From contig JAKBAG010000001.1 in NCBI GenBank assembly GCA_021809235.1, positions 1-52,483 on the forward strand: a stretch of 52,483 bases of DNA, written 5' to 3'. Under the pieces are notes generated by a model that was given only the letters and a program-made list of their open reading frames with translations, had not been told where the DNA came from and did not search any database. The DNA comes from Acidobacteriota bacterium. Its GTDB lineage: Bacteria; Acidobacteriota; Terriglobia; Terriglobales; Acidobacteriaceae. Position 1 is the stretch's first letter. Each line of letters begins with the position of its first letter. Position numbers and translations under genes: made by a program. Shown here piece after piece: positions 7,954-52,483 of the stretch.

Positions 7954-8208
7954 CAACGCGCTGGCAACACAGGCTGCGACTCATCAGGAAGTTTGAGTTT
8001 GTGCTCCACGTTCAGGTGGAAGACAGCAGACACCGCGGCAAATAGAGTTCAGGAGACGCTTGAACTTCCCCGCGTGAGGTCTTCTGTTGTGAATGCTGTG
8101 TTGCGCCTGCGAAGTCGTGTGCCCGGTCCAGGGTACACCGAAGTTCCTTTGAATCCAGAGAGTGGCCGGGATTGGACTGGTGAATCCGTGCGCGATGGCC
8201 GGAGCAGG

Positions 8209-10197: not shown

Positions 10198-10209
10198 GGG
10201 AATGCGAGC

Positions 10210-12975
10210 TTGGCTCAGAATTCTCATCGAAACGGATCGGCACCTCATCGAGAGTGGCGTCGCGTGCGTCTGACCGGCACTGTGCTGCTGGCAGCAGTGG
10301 TTGGGCTACAGGGTATGGGCAGCCTTGCCCAGTCCACGCCAGACCCGGTGGCTAAACCGGAGACTGCGGCGGAAGCGACTGCACGCCTGACCTGGGAACG
10401 GCAGGCAATGGAGAAGTTCACGACAGCGCGAAAGGCCTGGAATGCAAGCGTGGCGCCGGGCTACAACTATGCCTTTGGTCAGGACAGGCCATACGCGCCA
10501 GGAAATCTGCAGGTGGTTGGCTCCGGTTTTCTGCAGCCGGATGCCTTTCCCAGCGCCGAGTATTGTGGAGGCTGCCACCAGCAGGCCTATGCGCAGTGGC
10601 GCGAATCGCTGCATGCTAACGCCTTCCGGTCTCCGTTTTATCGGCGCAGCGTCAATCTGCTGATTCATGACAAAAGCCGCGGGATTGCCTATGCCCGGCA
10701 CTGCGACAGCTGCCATAACCCGGTGGCGGTGCTGGCAGGCGGATTGACCGAGAACTCCCAGGTCAATCGAACCGCAATGGATAGCGATGGTGTGACCTGC
10801 ATGACCTGCCATTCGGTGGTGAGGATTGGCGCACCCGAAGGCAACGGGCAACTGATGATGGGCGTCCCGGCAGTGATGGTGGACGAGCACGGAAACCGGA
10901 TTCCAGGCATGGTTTCCTATGACCAGATTCTGCGCCATCCCAAGCTGCATGCGCAGGCCGTGATGCATGACTTCCTGCACACGGCCGAGTTCTGCGCCGT
11001 CTGCCACAAGGCAAATCTTCCCGATGAACTGAACCACTACAAGTTTGTACGAGCCTTTACCACCTATGACGAGTGGCAGCTTTCCAAGTATTCGCATCGG
11101 AATCCGTTGACCTTCTACACCGCCGATCCGGCCACCTGCCAGGGATGCCACATGCAGCGCGGAGTAGCTGGTCCGCACGAGCCAGGAGCCAAACAGGGGC
11201 AGTTTGCCTCGCACCGCTGGCTGGCAGGAAACACGGCAGTGCCGTTCTATTACGGCTATGACACACAACTGCAGAAGACGATTGCCTTTCTGCGGTCAGG
11301 CAACTATCTGCATGTGGACATCTTCGCCCTGCGTGAGTCCGAGGGCGGCCGACTGATTGCGCCCCTGGGCCAGACGGCCTTCACGCTCAAGGCCGGGCAG
11401 AAGATTGAAGTCTGGGTCGTGATCCAGAACAAGGGAATCGGGCACTCCCTGCTGCCGGAGGTGCGTGATCTGTACCAGGCATGGGTTCACTTCCGGGTGC
11501 AGGATGGCGCAGGAACAAGCGTCTTTGAAAGCGGAGCCATCCGTGCCAACGGCAGTCTTGATCCTGCAGCACACATCTTCAACAATCGTCCGGTGGATGC
11601 GCAGGGCGAGTTCGTGGACAACCACGCTGTGTGGAAGATTCATTCAGTCGCCTATGACAACACGATCGAGTCTGGCCGCTCTGTGCTGGTTCGCTATCGC
11701 TTTCAGGTCCCTGAGCATGTGCAGGGGAACCTGACTCTGACCGCCAGTGTGGAGTATCGACACCTGCGGCAGAGCTACTTGAACAGCGTCTTTGGTCCGG
11801 ATCATCCCGCCTATCCCGTGGTGACGCTGGCCAGCCAGACGCGCCAGTTGCAAGTGGGCAGGAATCATCCCTCGGCACAGCATCCCTCTCCAGAGCAGCC
11901 GACCTGGATGCGCTGGAATAACGCGGGAATTGCACTGCTCGACCAGCTCCAGTATGGTGCAGCCGTGAATGCCTTTGCGCACGTGGTGCGGCTGCAACCG
12001 CAGCAGACCGACGGCTACATCAACGTGGCCCTGACGGAGATTGCCTGGGAGAAGTATGCCTCGGCACGCGCCGCGCTGCACAAGGCGCTTACCCTGCATC
12101 CATCCGATGCGCGCGCTCTGTTCTATCGCGCACAGCTGGAGCGACGATCCGGAAATCGCGCCGGAGAGATCGCAGACCTGGAGGAGGTGGTGCGGCAATT
12201 TCCGGATTCGCGCGATGCTCGCCGTGAGCTGGGCATTGCCTATTACCAGGAGAATGAGCTGGCCAAGGCCATGTCGGACTTTGAGTCGCTGCAGCAGATT
12301 GATCCGGATGATCTGGCAGCCCACTACAACCTGTCGATCCTGAACCGCCGGGCTGGGAACCAGGCAGATGCCGTGGCCGAACAAACCCGGTTTATCGATG
12401 AAAAGATTGATCCCGGTGCTCCCACCTATGCGCTGGACTATATCCGACAGCATCCGGAAATCTCCCTCGAGACGATTCCCTGGCATGTGCATGCCAACGT
12501 GCCCGTCGCAGAAGCCGCGACACCGGCAGGCAACGCAGCGACCGAGCAGGAGCAGGCCCCGCCACACGAAGTGACAGTCCCGACGGACCCGTGCAGCTGG
12601 ATAGGTTCGGCCACTGTATCGGCGCTGCTGGGTGGAAGCTTCCAGACGGTGCGACAAAACGGAATCTGCCTCTTTACCCTGCAGCAAGGCAGCAACCGGC
12701 GCGCGATGCTGGTGAGCAGCATCGCAAACTCAACCAGGGACAGCCCGGCAGGCACCTGTAACGGCAGCCCCGAACCACTGCAGGGGTTGGGCAATACTGC
12801 GGAGTTCTGCCGTCTGCGCAGCGGCTACGGAGCGCAGATTGTGGGTACTGTACGGAACCAGTGCTTCCGCGTACAGGTGACCACAAGCAACCGTCGCGAT
12901 CCTTTGCTGACTCCGGAGACATGGCGCATGGTTACCGAAGAAGCTGCCGCACAGGTGGCCGGAAACCTCTTCTGA
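10210..12975 (+). CDS. Exported multiheme c-type cytochrome with TPR repeats and extra C-terminal domain
   Basis: Five CxxCH motifs (codons at 10564, 10702, 10798, 10993, 11137); N-terminal hydrophobic signal; TPR repeats (WNNAGIALL..., AHYNLSIL); start may be GTG near 10264. Confidence 0.85.
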   Translation: MAQNSHRNGSAPHREWRRVRLTGTVLLAAVVGLQGMGSLAQSTPDPVAKPETAAEATARLTWERQAMEKFTTARKAWNASVAPGYNYAFGQDRPYAPGNLQVVGSGFLQPDAFPSAEYCGGCHQQAYAQWRESLHANAFRSPFYRRSVNLLIHDKSRGIAYARHCDSCHNPVAVLAGGLTENSQVNRTAMDSDGVTCMTCHSVVRIGAPEGNGQLMMGVPAVMVDEHGNRIPGMVSYDQILRHPKLHAQAVMHDFLHTAEFCAVCHKANLPDELNHYKFVRAFTTYDEWQLSKYSHRNPLTFYTADPATCQGCHMQRGVAGPHEPGAKQGQFASHRWLAGNTAVPFYYGYDTQLQKTIAFLRSGNYLHVDIFALRESEGGRLIAPLGQTAFTLKAGQKIEVWVVIQNKGIGHSLLPEVRDLYQAWVHFRVQDGAGTSVFESGAIRANGSLDPAAHIFNNRPVDAQGEFVDNHAVWKIHSVAYDNTIESGRSVLVRYRFQVPEHVQGNLTLTASVEYRHLRQSYLNSVFGPDHPAYPVVTLASQTRQLQVGRNHPSAQHPSPEQPTWMRWNNAGIALLDQLQYGAAVNAFAHVVRLQPQQTDGYINVALTEIAWEKYASARAALHKALTLHPSDARALFYRAQLERRSGNRAGEIADLEEVVRQFPDSRDARRELGIAYYQENELAKAMSDFESLQQIDPDDLAAHYNLSILNRRAGNQADAVAEQTRFIDEKIDPGAPTYALDYIRQHPEISLETIPWHVHANVPVAEAATPAGNAATEQEQAPPHEVTVPTDPCSWIGSATVSALLGGSFQTVRQNGICLFTLQQGSNRRAMLVSSIANSTRDSPAGTCNGSPEPLQGLGNTAEFCRLRSGYGAQIVGTVRNQCFRVQVTTSNRRDPLLTPETWRMVTEEAAAQVAGNLF

Positions 12976-12992: not shown

Positions 12993-13289
12993 TCAGGCAG
13001 TGAAGGCACCGATGCGCGTCTCTGCCGCCGTCAGCGCATCGCAGGCCCGATCCACAACCTCATAGTCGGCGTCGTGCGCGGCGCGAAAACTGCGAAAGGC
13101 CTCTTCGCTGGTCCAGCGATCCAGGGTCAGATAGCGGCCCGGCACATAAGCATCCCGCAGCAGTTCCGTACCCAGATACTCCGGCGAGCGGGAAAAGAGC
13201 GTTGACCAGGTGCCGCCCGGGGCGTAGGCAGCCTCAAAAGCGGAGAGCTTGTCTTCGGTCACGTCGAATTGCCAGACGATGAGGAACAT
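12993..13289 (-). CDS. Antibiotic biosynthesis monooxygenase (ABM) family protein
   Basis: MFLIVWQFDV...FEAAYAPGGTWSTLF...YLGTELLRD...YLTLDRWTSEEAF; SD AAGGAAG. Confidence 0.8.
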   Translation of the reverse strand: MFLIVWQFDVTEDKLSAFEAAYAPGGTWSTLFSRSPEYLGTELLRDAYVPGRYLTLDRWTSEEAFRSFRAAHDADYEVVDRACDALTAAETRIGAFTA

Positions 13290-13459
13290 GAGCTTCCTTT
13301 CTGGAATCATTATTCCATCGAAGCAGGATGGCCCAAGGTGGAAGCGTGGAAGATGCCCCAGCTCCGACACTCCCTGCGGGACTCACTCCAGAACATTCCG
13401 CAATGAGATTCCACTTTGGTCCGCGTTGCCGTGTGCAGGGCTGTCGCTGTCGCGCCGCC

Positions 13460-13485
13460 GGAACATTTCTCTCGCTGGCTGCGTA
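13460..13485 (+). promoter_or_regulatory. Candidate ECF-sigma promoter (GGAAC-N17-CGTA)
   Basis: GGAAC at 13460-13464 and CGTA at 13482-13485, 9 nt before ATG 13495. Confidence 0.55.
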
Positions 13486-13494
13486 TCGCAGGGC

Positions 13495-14160
13495 ATGAGA
13501 ATCCACACCATGACCGCAGGCATGCTGCTTTTGACCCTTTCCCTGGTGTCTCCACTGGCGGCACACGGCCAGAGCCGTGGTGACTGCTCGACCGTTCTGC
13601 ATGCCCCGCTTAACTCCGGTGGCATTCTGACGATTGATTCCATTTCCCTGGGCATGACGATTGAGCCGGCAGGCAGTGCCGTCCCGCAGGATACGGTGCA
13701 GGTCAGCTGTTCGATGGATCGGTCCGATCCGCCACGTTCCTTTCAAATGCAGCTCAGCGGTGAAAATGGCAACCTTCACCTGAAGGTCGAGGGCGGAACG
13801 GTGCACCATGGAGATCTGGAGCTGCATATTCTGGTGCCGGAGCGGACAAATTTGCGCGTCCGTATGGCTGCCGGACAAATCACGATCCAGAACGTGAGCG
13901 GGGACAAGGACTGCGCACTGCGGGCCGGGCAGATTACCATCTCCCAGAAGCAGGAGTGGAACTACCGACTGGTGGATGCCTCGGTGGACATTGGGGAGCT
14001 GAATGCCAAGGCCTATGGGCAGGAGATGGGCGGATTCTTCCGTCACTTCCGGGCAAACAGCACGGAAGGCGTTCACGATCTGTATGTCCACGTGGGAACG
14101 GGACAGGTCGATCTGCTGAGCGGTACGCATCGCAACAACGGGAAGCAGACCAGCGACTAG
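13495..14160 (+). CDS. Secreted hypothetical protein, DUF4097/adhesin-like beta-repeat
   Basis: Signal peptide (LLLTLSLVSPLAAHG); LHILVPERTNLRVRMAAGQITI, LRAGQITI, VDIGEL, VHVGTGQVDL repeats. Confidence 0.65.
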   Translation: MRIHTMTAGMLLLTLSLVSPLAAHGQSRGDCSTVLHAPLNSGGILTIDSISLGMTIEPAGSAVPQDTVQVSCSMDRSDPPRSFQMQLSGENGNLHLKVEGGTVHHGDLELHILVPERTNLRVRMAAGQITIQNVSGDKDCALRAGQITISQKQEWNYRLVDASVDIGELNAKAYGQEMGGFFRHFRANSTEGVHDLYVHVGTGQVDLLSGTHRNNGKQTSD

Positions 14161-14238
14161 CGCCTGCGGGATTGACCCCACGAGCGCAAGCTGCGAGGAT
14201 GAGCGGCAGGCGCGGCTGTGCGCCGGGAGATTGCCGCG

Positions 14239-15243
14239 ATGTTTGAGCCGCAAAGTTATGCCGGAGCACTGGTATGCATGGCTGTGACCATGCTGTGCTG
14301 GGGTTCCTGGGCCAACACCCGGAAGCTGACCCCTGGCTTCCGCTTTCCGCTTTTCTACTGGGACTATGTGAGCGGGCTGCTGGCGGCAACACTCGTTCTG
14401 GGGCTCACGCTGGGCAGCATGGGCGCAACAGGCCGCTCGCTGACCGACGATCTGGCGCAGGCCGGAGCCGGAAACCTGACACTGGCCATGATCAGCGGCG
14501 TGGACTTCAACGTGGCCAATCTGCTGCTGGTGGCAGCGATTGAAGTGGCCGGGCTGGCCGTGGCTTTTCCTGTGGGCATCGGATTGGCGCTCGTGGTGGG
14601 AGCCGTCTCCAGCTATGTGGTGAACCCGGCGGGCAATGCCGAAATGCTCTTTGGCGGTGTGGCGCTGGTGGTGGCAGCCATTGTGTGCGATGCCGCCGCC
14701 TACCGGCTGCGCGAACGCGGACAGCGCGCCAATACCCAACATCCCACCGCGCAGCGCGGCATCTGGCTGAGTGTGGCCGCAGGACTGCTGATGGGCACGT
14801 TCTATCCGCTGGTAGCGCGGGCCATGCAGGGCAGCCATGCCGCTGGTCCCTACAGTGCATCGCTTCTGTTTGCTCTTGGGGTGGCGCTGTGTGCGCTGCC
14901 GGTGAATGGCGCGCTGATGCGCTGGCCGCTGGATGGCGGCAAGCCGACAACCCTGCGCGCGTACGGGGATGCTCCCATGCGCTGGCATCTGTGGGGGGCG
15001 CTGGGTGGCGCGGTCTGGGCGCTGGGAGCCACGCTTAACTTTGTGGCCGCTGAGGCCGGACGCGTCGGCCCTGCGGTTTCCTATGCGATGGGTCAGGGTG
15101 CAACCATGGTGACGGCAGCCTGGGGCGTCTTTGTGTGGCGCGAGTTTGCCGGAGCTCCGCGGGCGGCGCGCTGGCTGCTGGCAGCGATGTTTACCCTGTT
15201 TCTGGCCGGGTTGACGCTGGTGGCACTGGCCCCGCTGCACTGA
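14239..15243 (+). CDS. DMT-superfamily GRP/ureide-permease-like transporter (likely ribose/nucleoside uptake)
   Basis: TMLCWGSWANT, FYWDY, AGLAVAFPVGIG, SYAMGQGATMV..WGVFVWREF; about 10 TM; upstream of ribokinase. Confidence 0.8.
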   Translation: MFEPQSYAGALVCMAVTMLCWGSWANTRKLTPGFRFPLFYWDYVSGLLAATLVLGLTLGSMGATGRSLTDDLAQAGAGNLTLAMISGVDFNVANLLLVAAIEVAGLAVAFPVGIGLALVVGAVSSYVVNPAGNAEMLFGGVALVVAAIVCDAAAYRLRERGQRANTQHPTAQRGIWLSVAAGLLMGTFYPLVARAMQGSHAAGPYSASLLFALGVALCALPVNGALMRWPLDGGKPTTLRAYGDAPMRWHLWGALGGAVWALGATLNFVAAEAGRVGPAVSYAMGQGATMVTAAWGVFVWREFAGAPRAARWLLAAMFTLFLAGLTLVALAPLH

Positions 15244-15293
15244 GCAGAATGGCATCGGGAAAATGTGCTGGAGAAGAGAATCAGGAGAAACAA

Positions 15294-16247
15294 ATGACAA
15301 GACGACCGATCGTCGTGGTAGGCAGCATCAACATGGATCTGGTGGTGCATGCGCGGCAGATTCCCGTCGGCGGCCAGACCCTGCTGGGAGATGGATTCCA
15401 GATGCACCCCGGAGGCAAGGGAGCCAATCAGGCGGTGGGCGTGGCGCGGCTGGGCTGGCCGGTGGAGATGATCGGCATGCTGGGCAGCGAGGCTGGCCAA
15501 AGCGAGACTGGCCGGCTGGATGCCATGGGCCAGACGCTGCGCAGCCATCTGCAGGCCGAAGGCGTGGGAACCGACGGCGTGGGTCTGGCCGATGCCGCCT
15601 CCGGCGTGGCACTGATCACCGTGGCCGACAGCGGCGAGAATACGATCGTGGTGGCACAGGGGGCGAATGCCTGCCTGACCCCACAGTGGGTGGAGCAACA
15701 GGCCGCCCGGCTGCGCGGTGCCGGCATGGTGCTGGTGCAACTGGAGATTCCGCTGGCGACGGTTGAGCGCGTAGCCCGGATCTGTGCCGAGGCTGGCGTG
15801 CCGGTGATGCTGGATCCAGCCCCGGCGCGTACGTTGCCCGAGAGCCTGTATCCGCTGCTGAGCTGGATGACGCCCAATGAGACCGAGGCCGCCTTCTATG
15901 CCGGGTGGCAGCACGAGTCTGACTTCGACCCGGCCGTGGTGGCAGCCACGCTGCAGGGACGCGGAGCAGCAGCCGTAGTGGTGAAGATGGGCGCGCGCGG
16001 TGCCTACCTGGCCGATGCCGAAGGCTACGCAGCGCACGTAGAGCCGTTTCCGGCGCAGGCGGTGGACAGCACCGCAGCCGGGGACGCCTTCAATGCCGCC
16101 CTGGCCGTGGCCCTGCTCGAGGGTAGAGCAACACCGGAGGCAGCACGCTTTGCCGCGGCGGCGGCGGCCATCTCCGTAACCCGCAATGGAGCTCAGGAGT
16201 CCATGGCTACGCGGCGGGAAGTGATGCAGCGGCTGGAAGTGCGGTAG
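15294..16247 (+). CDS. rbsK: Ribokinase
   Basis: SD AGGAG; VVGSINMDLV, GGKGANQA, QLEIP, TPNETEA, DSTAAGDAF. Confidence 0.92.
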   Translation: MTRRPIVVVGSINMDLVVHARQIPVGGQTLLGDGFQMHPGGKGANQAVGVARLGWPVEMIGMLGSEAGQSETGRLDAMGQTLRSHLQAEGVGTDGVGLADAASGVALITVADSGENTIVVAQGANACLTPQWVEQQAARLRGAGMVLVQLEIPLATVERVARICAEAGVPVMLDPAPARTLPESLYPLLSWMTPNETEAAFYAGWQHESDFDPAVVAATLQGRGAAAVVVKMGARGAYLADAEGYAAHVEPFPAQAVDSTAAGDAFNAALAVALLEGRATPEAARFAAAAAAISVTRNGAQESMATRREVMQRLEVR

Positions 16248-35376: not shown

Positions 35377-35565
35377 GCGAAACAGGATGGAGTATTCTTC
35401 CTTGACATCAGATTCCCCGTCTACGGCGGGTCATATCGTGGGCATGGGACTGCCAGCCAGAAGCCTGCATACAATGGAATCAGTGCCGTGCGGAGCACAA
35501 ACCGGCAGAGACCCCGATCCACGGCCTGTGCTGAGGCCGCACCGCAAAGCAGAAAAGGGATAGGT

Positions 35566-37098
35566 ATGCGTTCACCGGCAATTCCAGGCAAAGTGCGAAG
35601 CGCGAATGGCTGGTTCTGCCTGCCACGCATCCGGGCAGGAATCCGGGGAAGACTCTGCTCCAGAATTTGCATCCTGCTGGCTGCGCTTGTGGCTGCTGCG
35701 GAAGGCAGCGCCTGTGCACAGACCGCGCCCCTGAATCCGCAGAGTGTCTGGCATGACCGCATGGAGTCTCGGCTAGGCCCAATCCAGAATCCGACGCCAG
35801 TGCCGCTGCTGGACCCGCACACGGCCTGTAGCCAAGCCTGCACACTGCCGGAGCTGATCAACCTGGCCGAACAGCGCAATCCGGCCACGCGGCTGGCCTG
35901 GGAGCAGGCGCGCATCCGTGCGGCCAGTCTGGGAATCGCGCGGTCACAGTGGTATCCGACGCTGGCTGCGCTTGCCGTGGCCAGTACCGCACGCGTGCGC
36001 GTCCTGCTGAACTCGCAGTTCTACCGCCAGACCTATGGCAACTTTGCACCGGAGCTGCATGCCGAGTACCTGATTCTCGACTTTGGAGGACGCGAAGAGG
36101 CAATCCAGGAGGCAAAGTGGAATTTGCTGGCTGCCGACCTGAACTTCAATGATGCGCATCGCAAGGTGATTTTTAGCGTGATGCAGGCCTACTATCAACT
36201 GCTGAATGCCGGCAGCCTGCGCAAGGCTGCCGAGGTGAGTCTTGCCAATGCGCGCGCCGATGAGGCCGATGCCGCAGCCCGACTGCAGCACGGACTGGCC
36301 ACACGGCCGGATCTGCTGGAGGCGCAGGCAGCTCGGGCTCAGGCCGAGTACGATGTGCAGGCAGCACTGGGCAGGGAGGAAATTGCGCGCGGCGCGCTGG
36401 CAACAGCTCTGGAACTGCCACCGGAAACCCCGCTGCAGGTGGCCGAGGTAGACACGCTGCAGGTACCGTCCAGCATGGCCGACAGTGTGCGCGCAGAGAC
36501 GGAACGCGCACTGGCCGAGCGGCCGGACCTGAAGTCGCTGCTGGCGCGCATGCGGGCGGCGGATGCCGAGATTGGCCGTCAGCGTTCGACATTTCTGCCT
36601 ACGCTGCACCTGAGCGGAAATGCCGGGGAGACGCGACAGTATGGGCAGCAGGATCTGCTGCCGCCAGGGTATGGCGGCGGGGAAACCTGGGACGGCGCAC
36701 TGGAGCTGCGCTGGACGATCTTCGACGGCGGACTGCGCACACACGAACTGGCGCTGGCCCATGCCCAGAAGGCTGCCACCCAGGCCCAGATTGATACCCT
36801 GCGCGATCACATCGCCGAGGACGTGTGGAATGCCTATACCAATGCCGAAACCGCCCTCCGACAGCACGATGCGGCGCTGGCTCTGGTCTCGGCCTCCACG
36901 GAATCCTATGCCGCCACGCGCGAATCCTACAATGACGGCGTGCGCAATATTCTGGACGTGATTGCAGCGCAGAAAGCGCTGGCTCAGGCCCAGGCAGAGG
37001 ACGTTACAGCACGAACCGAGGTACTGCTGCAATTGGCAAATCTGGCCTTCCAGACCGGCGATCTGCTGGCAACCACCAGCACGAGGACGATTCCATGA
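35566..37098 (+). CDS. TolC/OEP family outer-membrane efflux protein
   Basis: LPELINLAEQRNP.TR, GLATRPDLLEAQ, RPDLK, IFDGG, YNDGVRNILDVIAAQ; start uncertain. Confidence 0.88.
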   Translation: MRSPAIPGKVRSANGWFCLPRIRAGIRGRLCSRICILLAALVAAAEGSACAQTAPLNPQSVWHDRMESRLGPIQNPTPVPLLDPHTACSQACTLPELINLAEQRNPATRLAWEQARIRAASLGIARSQWYPTLAALAVASTARVRVLLNSQFYRQTYGNFAPELHAEYLILDFGGREEAIQEAKWNLLAADLNFNDAHRKVIFSVMQAYYQLLNAGSLRKAAEVSLANARADEADAAARLQHGLATRPDLLEAQAARAQAEYDVQAALGREEIARGALATALELPPETPLQVAEVDTLQVPSSMADSVRAETERALAERPDLKSLLARMRAADAEIGRQRSTFLPTLHLSGNAGETRQYGQQDLLPPGYGGGETWDGALELRWTIFDGGLRTHELALAHAQKAATQAQIDTLRDHIAEDVWNAYTNAETALRQHDAALALVSASTESYAATRESYNDGVRNILDVIAAQKALAQAQAEDVTARTEVLLQLANLAFQTGDLLATTSTRTIP

Positions 37099-37400
37099 AC
37101 CATGCCTGCTTCCACAACCTCCGGCGTTGTACCCGCTGGCAAAGCCTGCAGTACTTTCTCGGCATGCTTCCGTTCGCCGCCTGTCTGGCTGGCTGCGACC
37201 ATGCTCCGGAGTTCAACATTGTCGGCTCGTACTTTCCGGCATGGCTGCTTTGCATGGCTGCAGGAACGGCGCTGTCCGGGCTGAGCTATCTGGGACTGAA
37301 GCGTCTGGGGGTGGATCGGGAGATCGTTGCCTCGATCGTGGTCTACCCATCGCTGGCACTGTTCTATGCCTGTGCACTGTGGCTGTTGCTGTTTCGATGA
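37095..37400 (+). CDS. ytcA: YtcA family lipoprotein/membrane protein
   Basis: LAGC..AP.FNIVGSYFPAWLLC...VYPSL; ATGA overlap with the TolC stop. Confidence 0.85.
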   Translation: MNHACFHNLRRCTRWQSLQYFLGMLPFAACLAGCDHAPEFNIVGSYFPAWLLCMAAGTALSGLSYLGLKRLGVDREIVASIVVYPSLALFYACALWLLLFR

Positions 37401-37411
37401 GAGGAAGAACG

Positions 37412-38632
37412 ATGGAGCTGACAGCAGAGACTCGACGCCGACTTGGACGCGGCATCAGCGCGGCTGCCGTGCTGGGCGCCACGATCACCGGCCTCTTCGC
37501 ACTCCAGCAAATGGTGGAGAATCCGCGCACCGATGATGCCGAGGTCTTTGCCAACTTTATTGGTATGGCGCCGGTGGTCAGTGGTCCGGTGATGAAGATT
37601 ACCGTGGCCGACAACCAATATGTGAAACAGGGGCAGATGATGCTGGACATCGACGAGCGGCCCTACGCCTATGCGCTGGGCCAGGCACGCTCCGAGCAGG
37701 CCGCACTCGAGGGCAGCATTGTGGATGAACAGCGACGCATCGCCTCCGAATCCAGCGCCGTGAGCGTGGCGGATGCCGGTGTGCGTAGCGCCGAGGCAGC
37801 TCTGGCCCACGCGCAGGCAGTGGTTGCGCAGGCGCGGGCAGCCGTGGTGGGCGCTCAGGCATCTGTGGATCGGGCGCGGGCTGAGCGCGACTATGCCGTG
37901 CACAATCGAGACAGACTGGAGCCACTACTGGCCAAGCAATTTGTCACCGTGGATCAGGTGGACCGAGCGCGCACCGTGGCCGCGGCACGCGAGCAGGCGC
38001 TGGCCGAAGCCCGGGCGCAGCAGACGCTGGCCGGTGCTGCGTTAACCTCTGCACTGGCTGCCGAAGCCCAGGCGAACGCAAGGCTGGAGCAGAGCCATCA
38101 GCAGGTGCAGCAGGCGCAGCACTCGGTGCTCACGCTGGAGCCGCTGGTGGCCCAGCGCAGCGGACGGCTTTCTGCCATCCAGACCGCCGAGTACAACCTG
38201 GAAAACTGCCGTCTCTATGCACCCTTCGATGGCCGAGTGACCAATCTGACCATCTCGGAAGGTGCCTACGCGCACGCCGGCCAGGAGATCTTTACGCTGA
38301 TCGACACGCGAACGTGGTGGGTGCTGGCCAACTTTCGCGAGACACAACTGCGGCATATCCAGCCCGGCATGAAGGCCGATATTTATCTGATGTCCCACCC
38401 GAACCTGCATCTGCACGGGGTGGTGGACAGCACGGGCTTTGGTGTGACGCCAGACGCCGACCTGCTGGGCCGGCTGACCAAGGGACTGCCGGATGTGCAG
38501 CGCACCTTGAACTGGGTACGCCTGGCCTCGCGGTATCCGGTGCGCATCCGCATTCTGGACGGTCCGCAGCAGAACTTTCGCCTGGGAGAATCCGCCGTGG
38601 TCGTCATCGACGGCCACCCCGGATTGCTATAA
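37412..38632 (+). CDS. mdtN: MdtN-like HlyD membrane fusion protein
   Basis: N-terminal TM, PRTDDAEV, APVVSG, APFDGRVTNL, ANFRETQL, LNWVRLASRYPVRI. Confidence 0.88.
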   Translation: MELTAETRRRLGRGISAAAVLGATITGLFALQQMVENPRTDDAEVFANFIGMAPVVSGPVMKITVADNQYVKQGQMMLDIDERPYAYALGQARSEQAALEGSIVDEQRRIASESSAVSVADAGVRSAEAALAHAQAVVAQARAAVVGAQASVDRARAERDYAVHNRDRLEPLLAKQFVTVDQVDRARTVAAAREQALAEARAQQTLAGAALTSALAAEAQANARLEQSHQQVQQAQHSVLTLEPLVAQRSGRLSAIQTAEYNLENCRLYAPFDGRVTNLTISEGAYAHAGQEIFTLIDTRTWWVLANFRETQLRHIQPGMKADIYLMSHPNLHLHGVVDSTGFGVTPDADLLGRLTKGLPDVQRTLNWVRLASRYPVRIRILDGPQQNFRLGESAVVVIDGHPGLL

Positions 38633-38638
38633 CCAACG

Positions 38639-40822
38639 ATGAGCGCAGAAGCCGTACTGGGTCGAACCGATACGCGCAGTTTTTCCGCATGGTTTGTGGA
38701 TTTTCTGCGCAGCGAAATGGCGCCCTACCCCGGTCGCGGGCTGCTGGTGGCCCGCATGGTCCTCTCCGCCACGCTGACCATGATTCTGGTCATGACCTTC
38801 CGGATTCCCAACGGAGCCACCGGCCCGCTCTACGCCTTTCTGATTGCCCGTGACAACCTGCTGACCACGGCACGATCTGCCCGCAACGTGACCATTGCCT
38901 TTGCGCTCTGTGCACTGTTTGTGCCCTTCGGCGGACGCATGTTCGGCTCCCTGCCGATGACCCATTTTCTTTGGGAGGCGGCGAGCATCTTTCTCATCTT
39001 CTTCCTCATCCGGACGCTGGACAACTACAGCATTGCCAGCGCTATTGGACTGATGGCAACCTCGGCTCTGGCCATCTGGTATCTGCCCGGCCCGGCGGCA
39101 CGGAACGTGGAGCTTACGCTGTGGCAGATTCTGTCGCCAGCCATTGGAGCCGGGGTCACGATCGTGGTTGAGGCAATCTTCCACGCAATCGTCAAGCAGG
39201 ATGAGCTGCTGCGCGGACTCGGCGACCGACTGCACCTGATCGAAGAGCTTTTGCACTGCTATGCAGCCGGAAGCACGGTATCCTCCACTCTGCGCCGCAG
39301 ACTGACGCAGGCAGCGATGATCGGCGTGGGCGGATTGCGCCGCAGCGCGGCCCGTGCCAACACTACTCCCATCCAGCGCGCACAGATGAATGCGGTCGTC
39401 TCCCTGGTGGGTCGCAGTGTGGACTTTGCTGCAGCGCTGGAGCAGACCACACGACAGATGAACGAGGGGGACAGGGATGCCGCCCGGCAATTATCTGCGC
39501 AAATTGCAACCATGCGCACCGCCATTGCCGAGGGCCACGGCAATGCGCTGCCGCAGTGGGTCGCTTCCACGGCAACACTGCCGCTGCTTCGTGAGATGGA
39601 AGGCATGTTTTCACTGATCCCGCGCGTGCTGGCTGGCACGGAATCCCTGGAGGCGTATGATGCCTTCACCGAACGCGCCCTGCCGCAGAGCCGCATCTTT
39701 GTGCGCGATGCCTTTTCCAATCCGGAGCATCTTCGCTACGCACTTGGCGGCTGCCTGGCGGGCACGCTTTGCTACGTGCTCTATGTCTCGCTCTCCTGGC
39801 CAGGACTGGCTACTTCGGTCACCACCTGCGTGCTGACGGCACTGACGAACATCGGCTCCTCGCGCCAGAAGCAGGTACTGCGACTGGCCGGAGCCGTGAT
39901 TGGTGGCTTCGTCTTCGGCATGGGAGCGCAAATCATGGTGCTTCCCTGGCTGGACAGCATCGCCGGCTTTACGGTGCTGTTTGTCGTCGTCTCGGCAGTT
40001 GCGGCCTGGATTGCCACGGCCAGCACACGACTGTCCTATTGCGGCCTGCAAATCGCGCTGGCCTTCTATCTGATCAACGTGAATGAGTTTCACATCCAGC
40101 TTTCGCTGACCATTGCACGCGATCGTGCACTCGGCGTACTGCTGGGCATTTCCATGATGTGGCTGGTCTTTGAACGCCTCCATCCCAAGACGGCTACCGA
40201 GACGATGATTGAAACCTTCCTGACCAATCTGCGCCTGCTGGCAGAGTTCAGCAAGCTGGCTCTGGCGAACCCTACGGCGAAGTCGGTTGCTCATGTTCGG
40301 CGACTGCGCACGGCCATCTCCAACAATTTCTCGGCCGTCAACGCGCAGGCCGATGCCATTCCCTTTGAGATTGGCGCGGCACGTCCGCAACACATGGCTG
40401 CGCGTGACCATATCCGCCGCTGGCAGGCCATGCTGCGCACCTACTTTCTGCTGGAGCTAGCCCTGCTGCAATATGCCGCATTCTCCGGAACGCTGAGCGA
40501 GGAGGACAGCATGGCACTGGGTCACTTTGACCGGCACTGCGCCCAGACGCTGGAGGCAATCGCAACACGGCTGGAGAATCAGTATCGCGCTTCCCAGGCT
40601 AACGATGCCGGAGGCACAGCCATGCGGCCGGATTCAGCAGCACCAGTGGCCATCCCCCCCGGATTCGGCTCACTCTCGGATTGGCGTGAGTGGCCCGTAC
40701 TGAACGGGCGTGAAGAGACCCTGGAAGGCGTATTGCCCATGGTTCGGGAGATTCGGCAACTGCTGGGCAGGGTCACGGAAGAGGTCGCGGCGACGCCACT
40801 GTTTGCCATCGAACAGCCGTAG
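38639..40822 (+). CDS. mdtO: MdtO-like FUSC family inner-membrane efflux protein
   Basis: EMAPYPGR, DAFSNPEHLRYAL, WPGLATSVTTC, GSSRQKQVLR, RLSYCGLQIA, ARDRALGVLLG. Confidence 0.85.
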   Translation: MSAEAVLGRTDTRSFSAWFVDFLRSEMAPYPGRGLLVARMVLSATLTMILVMTFRIPNGATGPLYAFLIARDNLLTTARSARNVTIAFALCALFVPFGGRMFGSLPMTHFLWEAASIFLIFFLIRTLDNYSIASAIGLMATSALAIWYLPGPAARNVELTLWQILSPAIGAGVTIVVEAIFHAIVKQDELLRGLGDRLHLIEELLHCYAAGSTVSSTLRRRLTQAAMIGVGGLRRSAARANTTPIQRAQMNAVVSLVGRSVDFAAALEQTTRQMNEGDRDAARQLSAQIATMRTAIAEGHGNALPQWVASTATLPLLREMEGMFSLIPRVLAGTESLEAYDAFTERALPQSRIFVRDAFSNPEHLRYALGGCLAGTLCYVLYVSLSWPGLATSVTTCVLTALTNIGSSRQKQVLRLAGAVIGGFVFGMGAQIMVLPWLDSIAGFTVLFVVVSAVAAWIATASTRLSYCGLQIALAFYLINVNEFHIQLSLTIARDRALGVLLGISMMWLVFERLHPKTATETMIETFLTNLRLLAEFSKLALANPTAKSVAHVRRLRTAISNNFSAVNAQADAIPFEIGAARPQHMAARDHIRRWQAMLRTYFLLELALLQYAAFSGTLSEEDSMALGHFDRHCAQTLEAIATRLENQYRASQANDAGGTAMRPDSAAPVAIPPGFGSLSDWREWPVLNGREETLEGVLPMVREIRQLLGRVTEEVAATPLFAIEQP

Positions 40823-40847: not shown

Positions 40848-43800
40848 CTACGGAGTCACATTTACGGTCAGATAGGCATGGTTGCTGACCGTCACATTGT
40901 TGACGTAGGCAGCGCCGGTGATCTGGAGTGTGGCCGTTCCCAGCGGTGTGCCGCTGGTGGTTGTTCCGGATGAGGATGGCGTCGATGTACCGCAGCCCAG
41001 CGTGGAAAAGGTGGTGGCAGCCAGCAGAACTGCCGCAAAGACCAGTGCCAGGCTTCTACCGTGCAGCCAGCGCAGACGGCGGCGACCCAGCGGTAGCAGC
41101 AGCAGCGCGGCCAGTGCCAGTGCAGTGGCAGTGCGGCCAGTGCGGCTGTCCGCAGGCCGACGCGAGGCCTGGATCAATCCCGCATAGGTGGTCACGGTCA
41201 GCGTTGCCGTCTCCGTTCCGTTCACGATGGTCGGATTGAAGGTGCAGGTGATGGCTCCTGCTGTGGGAGGATTCTGCTCTGCGCACAAAATCTGAATGGG
41301 GCCGGTCAATCCGCCGGTGGACGTAATGGTATAAGGCACCGTCGCCGTCTGGCCCTGGGGAATCGTGATCGAGGTCGTGGTGGAGGTGATGGTGAAGCTT
41401 TCAACGGCAAATCCAAGTGCATTCGATGTGGCCTGCGCATAGATGCTGTCGCCGGAGTAAACCGCGGTCAAGTTGTAGGATCCACCGGGAAGCGTGGGCA
41501 CATTGAGTGAGGCGACGGAAGTATCCGCAATGCTGGCGGTCAGGGTGCTTTCGCCGATGAGCTGCGTTCCGGCATAAAAGAAGATATGGCCCGATGGATT
41601 CTGTTCCACGCCGGTTGCCGGAACCGTCACAGGCGTGACCGTCGCGGTCAGGTTCGCAGCCTGGCCGGGCGAGAGCACTGCCGATGTGCTGGTCAGCGTC
41701 ACTGTAACCGGCTGCAGGATTGCTTCCAGCACCAACGGACTACTGGTACTCGAGGCCCAGGTTGTATCGCCGGAATACACCGCAGTAATACTGTGGGAGA
41801 CGGCAGGAGACAGGGTCGAAATCCCGGATAGCGTCGCAATGTTATTGATCACCGTTGCCGTTCCCAGTAGCGTGCTTCCCTGATCATAGAAGGATACGGT
41901 TCCGGTGATGCTGTAGGTGGTGGTGGTGCTGGCCGTCGGCGCAATGGTCGCCGTAAACGTCTCCGGCGTTGCCGAAGTCAGCTTGCTGGGCGTTGCAGTG
42001 ATGGAAACCGTGGTGGCCTGCTTGGCAACCGAGATGGTGACCGAGGGCGAGGTGGACTGGTTGTAGTTGGTGTCTCCGGCGTAGATGCCCTGCAACATAT
42101 GAGACCCGGACGTGGGAGCCGTCATGTTGAAGCTGGCCGTAGTCACGTTGCTGGTGGTAGAGAACTTTGCTGTCCCCTGCGGCACTCCATCCAGATTCAC
42201 CGTCAGAATTCCGGTCGGCGGAGAGTTGCCCGGATTACTCGCAGTCACAGTTCCCGTTACGGTAATGGCCGCTCCGGCAGCGGGAGTTGTGGTGGACGGC
42301 GCAATGACCAGCGAAGTGGCACTGGGCTGAATATTGAAGGTCACCGGCTGCGAGGTTGCCGAGGCATAGGTGGAGTCTCCGCTGTAAATGGCTTCAATAT
42401 TGTGCCCGCCAATGGTGAACTGCGCCGGCTCGGTGTAGGTGGCGGTACCATCCGACGCCAGCGTGACCGGCGAACCGGCATTCTGCTGGCTGGTCTGGTC
42501 ATAGAACTGGATGGTACCCGTGGGAACCGCTCCACCGGAGAGTGACGTGACTTTAGCTGTTAGCGGAATATCCGCGGAGGGGTTATAGGTCAACCCGTTC
42601 TGGTTGGTCATCAGCACCTGGGCCAGTTCGGTTCCTGTCGCATCCGGTCGTGTCCACTGAGCCAGCAGCGCCGACGCATGCACCGTTCCCAACCCGGTGG
42701 CCAGATCAAACCCGGCTGCAGCGGCATAGCCCATGCGCCCGTCCACTGCCTGCGCACCGCAGCCACTGGCCGTGCAATACAGACGATTGCCGCCCGTGGT
42801 CACATCCGCAAAGACAGGAGCGGCAGCGGCGGAGGAGTCGTTGGCGGAACTGCCCTGTGGCGAGGTGGCCGAGTCCATGCGCGCCAGTCGATACAGGTTG
42901 GGCGCCAGATTTCCCTGGGCTCCATGCGCAGCATCGATGCGGGCAGCCATACCAGCCATGGTGGCCGCAGCAATCGCACTGCCGCGGGCGGAGACTGCAC
43001 GACAGCTGGCTGCAAGATCGGTACCGCTCAGGCAGAAGACAGCTCCGCTGGAGCCTGCAGGAAGCACCAGGTCCGGAAGATAGCGGTGATGCCCGACAGC
43101 AGCTCCGGGTACCTGCCCGGGGTCGCCGGAAGGCATGCCCTGCGCGCTCTGCCACTGCGGCGTAGCATGGAGCGCGCTGATGCCTCCACCGGTTGCCAGC
43201 GCCGGATTGGCTGCCGATTGCGGCTCCCAGCCGGAGACAGGCATGGAACCGTCACTGCCAGCCGAAAGAACAGCCGCTCCAACGGCCAGATTCCACGGCG
43301 TTGAGGCCAGTGCATTGACACCTGTGGCGCTGCCGCACTCCATCGCGCCATGATCACCGCTGGCTGCAATCACAGCCATTCCCTCAGCGGCAGCTACCGC
43401 ATCGACCGTGGCATAGAAGGAGGCATGCGCAGAACTCAAGGTTGTCTCGCAGGAGTCGTAGCCAAGCAGGATCGTGTGCGCCGTGGCGCGATTCACCGCA
43501 GCAGCCAGGGCCAGATCCAGCCCGTCGGTCGCATTGGTGCCAGCCGCGGGAATTACTGCAATCTGTGCCTGCGGTGCGGCGGCCATTACCCACTGGGCCA
43601 TCGCGGCCGTCACGGCTTCGTCGTCTGTGCGCCCAGGATCTGCTCCGTCCGGCTGCACGGTCAGTAGTCCGGTTCCATCCGGAAGCCCAAAGGCTGCGCG
43701 AAAGGACATGGCATCCTCGTCGCGCAGGCTGCTGCGGGAGGGAATGGCAACGGTTGCCCCCGCAGCCGTCGCTGCGGTTGTCTCGCTGGCCTGCGCGGCT

Positions 43801-44594
43801 GTGGACTTGTTGGTTGGCAGAATACCGGCCTGTGCCAGCATCGCCGGTGTCAGCGCCTGCCCGGAGATTGCCACTGCCGTCTGCTTCGGAATCGCGCCTG
43901 CCTGCGGCACTCCGGAGGATTGCTGCCAACCCTGCCCGACCGACGTAACTGCCTCCAGTGAGGCTGCTGCACGCACGCCGTCAAGCGAGGCCAATCCTAC
44001 CACCTGCGCAGCAAGCGCCGCCGGAATCACAGGCGCAGCAGCAAAGCGCAGAATGGGCTGACCTTCGGCATCGGTGCCAGCTGTCGTCAACCGCGCTTGA
44101 AAGGCTGCCTCCACCTGCGCACGGGATCCGCTGAAGACAATCCACATGCGGCTGGAAGGCAGAGGCTCTACCTGAAAGCCCTCGTCAGCAAGCCAATGCG
44201 TGACGGCGGAAATCTGGCCGGAGGCTGGGGCGTATTGGGAGGCAAATTGCTGCGCCGTCAACCACTGGTGAAACTGCGCGCTGCCGGGCGTCTGCTGCGC
44301 CTCCAGCAGCTGATGCAGGGCGCGAGTCTGTGCCGCAGAACCGCGCAGAAGCAGGATCATGCGCTGCACCGCGCCCACGGCTGCCGTGCCAGCATCGCTG
44401 GCGCTGGTTCCACGGGTCGTCACGCGCTGTGCGCTGCCGGTGGCCGCACTCGCACCCAGCGCCGCGACCAGCGTTAAGGCAGCCAGCAGCACCGTGGCAC
44501 TCCGCCGCTTGGACAGGCGCCAGCGCCCGGCACAGGTTGCCGTGCGCTGGCTGCGCTGGGTATTGCTCTCCAGAAAGCTGGGCAGATTCCGCAT
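40848..44594 (-). CDS. S53 (sedolisin)-like probable pseudoprotease with pro-domain, Big_3 Ig repeats and C-terminal TM-hairpin/internal lipobox module
   Basis: Pro-kumamolisin-like FHQWLTAQQF; SGDHG; PDLVLP; GFDLATGLGT; Ig repeats ..H.I.A.YSGD..Y..STS; start 44594 (TACAAT upstream) or 44669. Confidence 0.8.
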   Translation of the reverse strand: MRNLPSFLESNTQRSQRTATCAGRWRLSKRRSATVLLAALTLVAALGASAATGSAQRVTTRGTSASDAGTAAVGAVQRMILLLRGSAAQTRALHQLLEAQQTPGSAQFHQWLTAQQFASQYAPASGQISAVTHWLADEGFQVEPLPSSRMWIVFSGSRAQVEAAFQARLTTAGTDAEGQPILRFAAAPVIPAALAAQVVGLASLDGVRAAASLEAVTSVGQGWQQSSGVPQAGAIPKQTAVAISGQALTPAMLAQAGILPTNKSTAAQASETTAATAAGATVAIPSRSSLRDEDAMSFRAAFGLPDGTGLLTVQPDGADPGRTDDEAVTAAMAQWVMAAAPQAQIAVIPAAGTNATDGLDLALAAAVNRATAHTILLGYDSCETTLSSAHASFYATVDAVAAAEGMAVIAASGDHGAMECGSATGVNALASTPWNLAVGAAVLSAGSDGSMPVSGWEPQSAANPALATGGGISALHATPQWQSAQGMPSGDPGQVPGAAVGHHRYLPDLVLPAGSSGAVFCLSGTDLAASCRAVSARGSAIAAATMAGMAARIDAAHGAQGNLAPNLYRLARMDSATSPQGSSANDSSAAAAPVFADVTTGGNRLYCTASGCGAQAVDGRMGYAAAAGFDLATGLGTVHASALLAQWTRPDATGTELAQVLMTNQNGLTYNPSADIPLTAKVTSLSGGAVPTGTIQFYDQTSQQNAGSPVTLASDGTATYTEPAQFTIGGHNIEAIYSGDSTYASATSQPVTFNIQPSATSLVIAPSTTTPAAGAAITVTGTVTASNPGNSPPTGILTVNLDGVPQGTAKFSTTSNVTTASFNMTAPTSGSHMLQGIYAGDTNYNQSTSPSVTISVAKQATTVSITATPSKLTSATPETFTATIAPTASTTTTYSITGTVSFYDQGSTLLGTATVINNIATLSGISTLSPAVSHSITAVYSGDTTWASSTSSPLVLEAILQPVTVTLTSTSAVLSPGQAANLTATVTPVTVPATGVEQNPSGHIFFYAGTQLIGESTLTASIADTSVASLNVPTLPGGSYNLTAVYSGDSIYAQATSNALGFAVESFTITSTTTSITIPQGQTATVPYTITSTGGLTGPIQILCAEQNPPTAGAITCTFNPTIVNGTETATLTVTTYAGLIQASRRPADSRTGRTATALALAALLLLPLGRRRLRWLHGRSLALVFAAVLLAATTFSTLGCGTSTPSSSGTTTSGTPLGTATLQITGAAYVNNVTVSNHAYLTVNVTP

Positions 44595-44683
44595 CGGTGG
44601 CAAGCATGATTGTAAAGCCGGGCAGCCGGTACTGTTCCAGAACTTTTCGTCAGGAAGCCGACCTTGCATGCGGAGCTACCCGG

Positions 44684-51480: not shown

Positions 51481-52483
51481 TTACTGGACGTTGAGTGTGA
51501 CGGTCGTGGAGTGGACGAGAGCTCCGGAGGTTCCCGTAATACTTACCGTGTAGGTGTGCTGCGCCTGGCCAAAGTAGCCGGTTGTAGTACCGCATCCGGA
51601 CAATCCGGCCACCGTACCCAGACCAACCATCAGCAGCAGAGCCAGAGTCACTGCGCGGCCCATCCGCTTGCCCATCTTGCGCATCCTCCTGGTAAACGGC
51701 AGCAGCAGCACGCCCAGTGCAATCGGAGCCAGTCCTCTACCCCATGGTTGTCCTTCGGGCTTTCCAGTCGATCTGCCCGGAAGCGGCCTGTTGGTCTGGC
51801 GCAGAGCAGCCATGGTTGTGTTCGGCACCTGCACCGTCAAGGTCACATTCGTGGGGCCGGAACCGGCCTGGATTGAGGTTGGCGAAAGCGTGTAGGTTGC
51901 CCCTGTCGGCAGACCGCTCACGCTTAGTGCGACGTTGGCCGGGAAGGTTGTGGCACCGGTCGGGCTCAGCGTGAACACATAGTTCGCTGTTCCTCCCGGA
52001 ACAACCGTTGCCGTTGTTGCACCTCCCGCCGTGGTGGAGATGGTCAAGTTGAAGTCCTGCACCGTCTGCAACAGTGCGGGGCTGGTTGCAGCTACAAAGT
52101 TTCCATCGCCGGAGTACACCGCCGTAATCGTGTGTGTGCCGATGGCAAGCGTAGAGCTGGTCAGCACTGCCACGCCATTTGTCAGCGCAGCCGCACCGAT
52201 CGGAGTGCTCGTTGTGGAACCGTCAAAGAAGCTGACCGTCCCCGTCGGCATCCCGACAACCGAGGCCACTGTCGCGGTGAACGTGACCGGATTCTGCACC
52301 AGCACCGTGTTGGCAGAGCTGATCAACGATATGCCTGCCGTGGCCTTGTTCACCGTGAGCATGGACGAAGCGGTCGCCGTCTTATAGTTGGTTGCGTTCG
52401 ACGGGGTGAAGTTTGCGGTCAGGCTGTAGCTTCCTGCCGGCAATACAGTCGTCGCTGTAACAGCACTTGGCACTCCTCCCGCA
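51481..52483 (-). CDS. Ig-like (Big_3) repeat surface protein, 5' end beyond window, with C-terminal TM-hairpin/internal lipobox module
   Basis: Frame is open to the window edge; PTGTVSFFDG..IGTHTITAVYSGDGNF; ends GLAPIALGVLLLPFTRRMRK...GLSG|CG...TYTVSITGTSGALVHSTTVTLNVQ. Confidence 0.85.
   Translation of the reverse strand, partial: AGGVPSAVTATTVLPAGSYSLTANFTPSNATNYKTATASSMLTVNKATAGISLISSANTVLVQNPVTFTATVASVVGMPTGTVSFFDGSTTSTPIGAAALTNGVAVLTSSTLAIGTHTITAVYSGDGNFVAATSPALLQTVQDFNLTISTTAGGATTATVVPGGTANYVFTLSPTGATTFPANVALSVSGLPTGATYTLSPTSIQAGSGPTNVTLTVQVPNTTMAALRQTNRPLPGRSTGKPEGQPWGRGLAPIALGVLLLPFTRRMRKMGKRMGRAVTLALLLMVGLGTVAGLSGCGTTTGYFGQAQHTYTVSITGTSGALVHSTTVTLNVQ

Follow-up and report, generated by a model that had tools for sequence, protein, structure and literature searches.

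What anchors an exported protein whose last Ig-like domain breaks off before two hydrophobic helices, and whose only lipobox lies near the C-terminal end? The question is raised by a minus-strand open reading frame (ORF) in a 52,483-nucleotide stretch of an Acidobacteriaceae genome (assembly GCA_021809235.1, contig JAKBAG010000001.1), hereafter the window. A preliminary description, made from the letters alone, had noted the interrupted domain, a first helix, a basic cluster, a second helix ending in a lipobox, a linker and two final strands. From these it proposed a candidate new surface-anchoring system in which the C-terminal peptide is lipidated, excised and then completes the Ig fold. All of these elements are present in the ORF, down to the codon of the cysteine (Table 1). 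The split-Ig anatomy and the lipobox of that proposal are supported, as is closure of the fold by the strands after the Cys; the claim of novelty is overstated, as the tail was already catalogued in NCBIfam. The tail, by which we mean the C-terminal 185 residues of the ORF, is real, catalogued and mechanistically unusual, and its lipidation and cleavage are predicted from sequence.

Family assignment and distribution

The protein has one NCBIfam match, to NF058595.1 (invert_tail), at 38.8 bits for the whole protein and 44 bits for the tail alone (cut-off 37). This match covers residues 1154-1270 of 1273 and model positions 2-113 of 113, and is thus C-terminal on a large protein. The tail is a catalogued member of NF058595 and not a new family. 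NCBIfam release 20.0 names the model 'lipo-invert putative C-terminal anchoring domain-containing protein', so that the anchoring role is putative by the model's own name. Compared through its span and name line, the model starts at strand E (aa 1154) and lacks strands A-D. All 101 aligned members matched it at E ≤ 0.01, most of them having been collected with NF058595 itself. Pfam had no model above cut-off for the tail, the sole match being TauE, below cut-off. The family label is known at NCBI; in a literature search with most subscription journals outside its reach, we found no printed test or description of the split fold, no paper on a lipo-invert tail or an internal lipobox, and none in which LspA works on an internal signal preceded by another membrane helix. 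The main text of the myxosortase preprint does not contain 'Acidobact', 'invert' or 'lipobox'.

Nine copies of the tail occur in this genome, which is 85% complete; seven of them, including the second copy in the window, are above the NF058595 cut-off. Their passengers differ, comprising S53-like, NHL, Big_3_5 and Cep192-type Ig proteins. A profile survey of the phylum, as the preliminary description had advised, gave matches at E ≤ 1e-5 in 40 of 301 genomes, with 32 above cut-off; 14 candidates were scored per genome, so that per-genome counts are lower bounds, and the tally includes one match in an unpublished genome (G145), which is used nowhere else. The tail was found in 25/25 genomes of the window's family, with a maximum of at least 14 matches per genome, and the closest named relatives were Acidobacteria/Acidobacteriaceae MAGs. 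In another class the domain was matched in 17 of 121 genomes and the full split form in only 2; 30 loci read from that class held 35 domains, 2 of which were split. G204 and G371 are sporadic carriers of the tail. The NF058595 match checked in G258 (L047) appears to be an ordinary N-terminal lipoprotein, so that weak matches to the model outside the family are unreliable.

The carrier protein

From its N-terminus the carrier comprises a predicted signal peptide, a pro-kumamolisin domain, a degenerate S53-like domain, four Big_3_5 domains and the split Ig domain with the lipo-invert tail, and it is likely an exported protein. Translation more likely begins at Met26 (44594), which would make the protein 1248 aa long, the length of the database copy. 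By a crude rule, 38 of the 57 Met-starting tail carriers have a signal peptide, and many of the remaining 19 appear truncated. We rejected an artefact as the source of the tail, the carrier ORF being intact and the tail being kept in orthologs at 62-97% identity.

Table 1. Features of the carrier ORF, its tail and the second tail copy in the window
Feature	Residues	Position in window	Strand	Basis or remark
Carrier ORF	1-1273	40848..44669	-	Profile searches and sequence
Predicted Sec signal peptide core (KRR, hydrophobic stretch, ASA)	about 54-75	44445..44510	-	Read from sequence; no lipobox
Pro-kumamolisin activation domain (PF09286)	93-225	43995..44393	-	Pfam, E 9e-24
S53/sedolisin-like domain		42654..43862	-	Motif inspection
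Four Big_3_5 (PF16640) Ig-like domains		41406..42617	-	Pfam, E 9e-46, four stretches; outer bounds approximate
Strands A-E of the last Ig-like domain	1091-1162	41184..41399	-	Domain search, AlphaFold model
Basic linker before helix 1	1163-1179	41133..41183	-	Fast-evolving by ortholog identity
Helix 1, predicted stop-transfer	1180-1195	41085..41132	-	Hydrophobicity, AlphaFold
Arg-rich loop RRRLRWLHGR, predicted cytoplasmic	1196-1205	41055..41084	-	Charge
Helix 2 and lipobox ending STLG, signal peptide II-like	1206-1225	40995..41054	-	Sequence, conservation
Conserved Cys, predicted lipidation and LspA cleavage site	1226	40992..40994	-	Conservation
Gly/Ser/Thr tether	1227-1240	40950..40991	-	Sequence, family means, AlphaFold
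Strands F-G, predicted to close the Ig sandwich	1241-1273	40851..40949	-	Homology to the final strand pair of the uninterrupted repeat
Copy 2: C-terminal portion of another protein, same split-Ig lipo-invert tail		51481..52482	-	Cut by window end

The passenger itself appears to have diverged from an active enzyme. In its S53-like domain ExxLD is absent, GTS reads GSA (Ala565) and SGD is kept. We take ExxLD to hold the catalytic Glu/Asp and GTS the catalytic Ser, which would put Ala565 at the Ser position. The same loss of ExxLD and the same change of GTS to GSA occur in P0001 and the orthologs P0027 and P0067; a paralog (C92) keeps both motifs. Judged by these motifs, the domain is likely an inactive pseudo-protease that has retained its pro-domain.

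A split Ig-like domain

A ~99-aa Ig repeat, found intact elsewhere, holds the insert in its E-F loop. Querying with the tail region brought up many proteins that carry repeats of this length in tandem and without interruption. One of these, P0003, has eight intact repeats and a ninth, its last, that stops after strand E and resumes beyond the insert, which bears out the earlier reading of a last Ig domain split by a helix insert. The 229 proteins and frames examined held 201 domains flagged as interrupted, 261 flagged as intact and 32 that were unclear. Of the interrupted domains, 199 are the last such domain and lie at most 150 aa from the protein end. This genome also holds an uninterrupted control, a locus with three intact copies of the same repeat and no tail (contig C336, 1838-5563, minus strand). 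Other proteins (P0188, P0198, P0220, P0173 and others) have an intact Ig repeat followed by a single C-terminal helix and basic residues, often after an 'ILGL/IFGL' motif; from its sequence this ending looks like a different, simple C-terminal anchor.

The post-Cys strands had been read as the two missing terminal strands, and both homology and structure prediction agree. Their consensus corresponds to the final pair of strands in the uninterrupted repeat. An AlphaFold2 model built with 101 sequences shows one sandwich, in which the tail strands (model residues 156-166 and 172-182) have a pLDDT of 90-96 in 10-residue blocks, like strands A-E; the insert is of low confidence and forms two helices. 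VIA-align placed 94 residues of model range 2-182 on residues 404-502 of 1eut, one ~99-residue domain, at 1.8 Å and Z 12.1, and 99 residues on 8jmw at Z 12.2. With about 73 residues in A-E by itself, the match must include the tail strands. No match came from a PDB sequence search with P0001, and Foldseek gave weak, generic Ig matches only. Strands F-G are best described as predicted, by model, to complete one Ig sandwich with A-E.

We also folded the two halves as separate chains. A-E and F-G scored 0.49 against 0.02 for the best control, with contact agreement of at least 95% and partner pLDDT of at least 66; passes at or below 0.60 in this test comprise 18 of 157 solved pairs and both passing mismatches, and same-fold halves tend to pass by likeness. 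The outcome lends weak support to pairing of A-E and F-G in trans. In split members, A-E and F-G also covary only weakly: the mean z is 0.66 against 0.05 ± 0.25 (maximum 0.46) in 30 shuffles that ignore kinship, and only 3 of the 15 test pairs across the split fall within the top 26 of 915.

Three of 204 members (L046, L132 and P0176) have about 85-105 extra residues nested between the Cys and F-G, which remain terminal. The nested part, apparently a whole domain, is ASH-like, below cut-off, in L046 (1120-1974, genome G204); L132 is from G169. The fold of a nested-domain member has a pLDDT of 96-98 for A-E and F-G, the nested domain staying unfolded on too shallow an alignment, so that this model contributes little. 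As a group, the three members suggest that the segment after the Cys acts as a self-contained exported unit. Within A-E, Cys1129 and Cys1142 are likely a disulfide. The corresponding extra Cys pair is present in 170/204 split domains as against 144/1263 intact domains overall, and in 74 of the 145 uninterrupted repeats that share a protein with a split domain; lineage accounts in part for the extra disulfide.

The lipobox cysteine and selection on the tail

All nine paralogs in this genome have the Cys. The large member sets were partly gathered with Cys-containing models, and the 204-member set required the Cys; against this circularity, insert-blind searches used strands A-E only. In this genome such a search found 11 domains, 3 intact and 8 split, with the Cys in 8/8 of the latter. 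In four other genomes it gave 89 matches, of which 60 were fetched: 17 had no insert, and in the 43 with a hairpin the Cys was present every time (pattern matching found 40, inspection by eye 1, and reading of the shifted frame 2 in frameshifted copies). For background, [GAS]C occurs at that distance in 14 of 291 other internal basic and hydrophobic segments of this genome, and ~3 of those 14 resemble mis-started ordinary lipoproteins. Conservation of the lipobox Cys exceeds chance.

The surroundings of the Cys were summarised over 147 split domains below 70% identity (kept of 148, one being mis-flagged intact). Position -1 is G in 69%, A in 17% and S in 14%; helix 2, the h-region, has a mean length of 18.7 aa, and the mean content of the loop is 4.5 K/R and 0.02 D/E. 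Of the pattern-based flags in the whole analysis, P0037 and three intact domains were discarded by eye. The internal lipobox resembles the N-terminal lipoboxes of this genome. Eight orthologs of the window protein have identities of 85% in A-E, 38% in the linker, 57% in helix 1, 37% in helix 2 and 96% in F-G. Moreover, F-G identity is higher than that of helix 2 in 18/18 clusters and than that of helix 1 in 16/18. Such an identity profile is what one would expect of a disposable signal with folded-domain sequence on either side. In two members of G291 (L160 and L170) the tail genes are frameshifted within the hairpin region, and are pseudogenes or assembly errors.

Processing genes

This genome (G000) holds single copies of lspA, lgt, lnt and lolA, together with one secretin match. 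Its LolC/E-like gene is below the NCBIfam cut-off, as are the LolC/E-like matches in 4/4 genomes. Dedicated paralogs of the lipoprotein enzymes were considered and rejected: lspA is single in 5/5 genomes, and no extra lspA accompanies the tail among these five. A single lgt occurs in G000, G169 and G250, and extra divergent copies in G299 and G259. When the window genes were compared with six syntenic relatives, no processing gene was found among the conserved neighbours; an acetamidase gene adjoins the carrier gene in 6/6 relatives, an efflux operon adjoins it in 2, and relA/spoT lies in the flank in 2. With single general lipoprotein genes and no conserved processing neighbour, the general lipoprotein pathway is the simplest candidate.

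Two rhomboids, one with catalytic motifs and one without, and four CPBP genes were found in G000. Among five genomes counted, tail-bearing ones have 4-9 CPBP genes and two tail-less ones 4 and 7; no cognate sortase for the tail was found from these rhomboid and CPBP counts. A rhomboid-family protein without GxSG and His motifs occurs in 3/3 tail-rich genomes (L210, 1324-2148 on contig C144 of G000; L209 in G299; L215 in G169). The tail-less G259 and G250 have similar rhomboids (L208 and L212) with the same basic C-terminal motif and with the catalytic motifs kept. The motif-lacking protein is possibly a family pseudo-rhomboid, and its association with the tail is confounded by kinship.

A proposed route and its alternatives

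The signal peptide suggests that Sec would export the passenger (step 1). By charge and hydrophobicity, helix 1 would stop transfer with the Arg loop inside, and helix 2, for which the loop would act as n-region, would restart export (step 2), putting the Cys and strands F-G in the periplasm. There F-G would close the Ig sandwich (step 3), homology being observed and structure predicted. Lgt, LspA and Lnt, of which one gene each is present, would lipidate the Cys and cut before it (step 4). The mature peptide would be 48 aa, a small correction to the ~45 aa first estimated. We lean slightly towards the view that Lgt and LspA make this lipopeptide and that its strands stay in the Ig fold, tethering the passenger, a judgement that covers steps 1-4; our belief in the topology, the lipidation and the LspA cut, taken jointly, is likewise a little stronger than our doubt.

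The preliminary description took the lipopeptide to tether the passenger once cut out, and overlooked that after cleavage by LspA alone the passenger would still be held by helix 1; a second cut is therefore needed before the lipopeptide becomes the sole anchor. Made at helix 1 or ahead of it, most probably by a rhomboid, this cut would release the passenger from the hairpin (step 5). It is the weakest step, and less certain than formation of the lipopeptide; the linker before helix 1 is a candidate region for it. Helix 1 is predicted to be N-out/C-in and is Gly/Pro-rich, ending in the Arg cluster, and rhombosortase acts on an N-out/C-in helix in GlyGly-CTERM proteins (10.1101/2023.06.07.544157). 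With Asp lacking at +2, transport of the LolA/LolC type could then move the pair to the outer membrane. We put forward the full route, with the second cut and outer-membrane transport, tentatively, and doubt it somewhat more than we believe it.

The nearest alternative is a sub-case, the same route minus step 5. Lgt and LspA would act and helix 1 would stay uncut, so that the passenger would face the periplasm on the inner membrane, held by both hairpin and lipopeptide. No conserved motif for a second cut precedes helix 1 in the 204-member set, helix 1 has ~18 uncharged residues, long enough to span the membrane, and it is more conserved than helix 2. However, the lipid would then be redundant, and Asp at +2 is absent from 204/204 members, although lipoprotein retention rules outside E. 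coli vary. Helix 1 also has Pro in 171/204 windows as against 28/204 for helix 2, and is richer in Gly (the windows include the helix ends); the substrates of intramembrane proteases are often Pro/Gly-rich in the helix. We regard such a double anchor as unlikely. No more probable, in our judgement, is an uncut single chain on a two-helix inner-membrane anchor, its Cys either acylated by Lgt without a cut or unmodified. AlphaFold reaches the fold without processing, and we found no precedent for an internal LspA cut in the literature within reach. Against this, the full lipobox is kept in every one of the split domains from the insert-blind searches, helix 2 evolves at the pace of a disposable signal peptide, and splitting the domain would confer nothing if the chain stays whole.

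The least probable of the readings that we weighed, and a distinctly unlikely one, is a dedicated sorting enzyme, CPBP/myxosortase-like or another intramembrane protease, that reads the Cys and, in the manner of MYXO-CTERM processing, cleaves the protein or transfers it. CPBP proteases process Cys-containing C-terminal tags (PMC11980579), CPBP genes are numerous in tail-bearing genomes, and the tail-rich genomes share the rhomboid ortholog without catalytic residues. However, the Cys follows a basic and then a hydrophobic segment, the order of signal peptide II, and does not precede a terminal helix; CPBP counts are similar in the two tail-less genomes, and no processing gene was seen among the conserved neighbours when the window genes were set against six syntenic relatives.

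Returning to processing by Lgt and LspA followed by a second cut, the Acidobacteriaceae may have a family-wide sorting route without a sortase of its own, one precursor encoding both cargo and anchor; this, too, we hold with more reserve than conviction. In that route a rhomboid would sever the cargo from the hairpin, the lipopeptide would complete the cargo's last Ig fold, and Lol would carry enzymes and adhesins of 30-400 kDa to the outer membrane by their C-terminal end. The clip would be non-covalent, and possibly releasable or exchangeable. If this mechanism is true, an internal signal in a multi-helix protein would be open to signal peptidase II, and fold complementation could fix a lipid anchor to the C-terminal end of a protein whose N-terminus stays available for pro-domains and enzymes. 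The mechanism would also account for how a family dominant in soil and acid habitats displays its glycosidases, proteases and adhesins, of which there are up to about 14-25 per genome.

Comparison with known systems

Like signal peptide II lipoproteins, the tail has a basic n-region, an h-region of ~19 aa, a [LAV][TSA][GAS]C lipobox and a Gly/Ser tether. Unlike them, it has its signal more than 1,100 residues in, behind a stop-transfer helix, with the Cys at aa 1226, and its 'lipoprotein' is merely two beta-strands of the upstream domain. Read from sequence features, the tail would work like a signal peptide II lipoprotein; by position it is not one.

Many paralogs per genome and unrelated passengers are shared with the GlyGly-CTERM/rhombosortase and MYXO-CTERM/myxosortase tags (10.1101/2023.06.07.544157; PMC11980579). 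Helix 1 and the Arg cluster resemble the helix and basic end of tripartite CTERM tags, and the invariant Cys is a likeness to MYXO-CTERM. In contrast to such tags, the tail has no signature motif before helix 1, its Cys follows a second helix, folded strands continue beyond it, and 78 residues run from the Arg cluster, which in CTERM tags is terminal, to the C-terminal end. None of 101 tail members gave a CTERM-tag NCBIfam match.

In SEAL/SEA and GAIN/MAIN domains a shared beta-sheet holds the pieces of a cut domain and tethers the ectodomain to the piece in the membrane (10.1101/2023.06.27.546760; 10.64898/2026.05.12.724683), as the strands of the tail would do. Those domains have other folds and cut themselves in a tight turn, whereas the tail has a ~80-aa membrane cassette at the split point, which is predicted to be removed by enzymes and to leave a lipid anchor. 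Among the families listed by the structure search, the tail model best matched Ig-like sandwiches (Z 12). The main text of the MAIN preprint (10.64898/2026.05.12.724683) has no occurrence of 'Acidobact', 'lipoprotein' or 'lipobox'.

Completion of an Ig-like fold by a strand from another chain is a feature of chaperone-usher pili. Type V fimbriae offer a similar likeness, an Ig-like fold being closed by a strand of a separate chain in donor-strand complementation, and type V pilins begin as signal peptidase II lipoprotein precursors (PMC5789003). Unlike both kinds of pili, the tail draws its strands from its own precursor and gives no hint of building polymers; its lipid is predicted to remain on the donor strands.

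Other genes of the window

The efflux operon converges on the carrier gene (35488-40822, plus strand) and encodes an outer-membrane factor, a small membrane protein, an HlyD-type protein and a 727-aa membrane protein, the last of which had no Pfam match at E ≤ 0.001. An ORF of 688 aa (13234-15300, minus strand) had no Pfam or NCBIfam match. At 7993-12975 on the plus strand, an FG-GAP/ASPIC-UnbV protein is followed by a multiheme cytochrome c-TPR protein.
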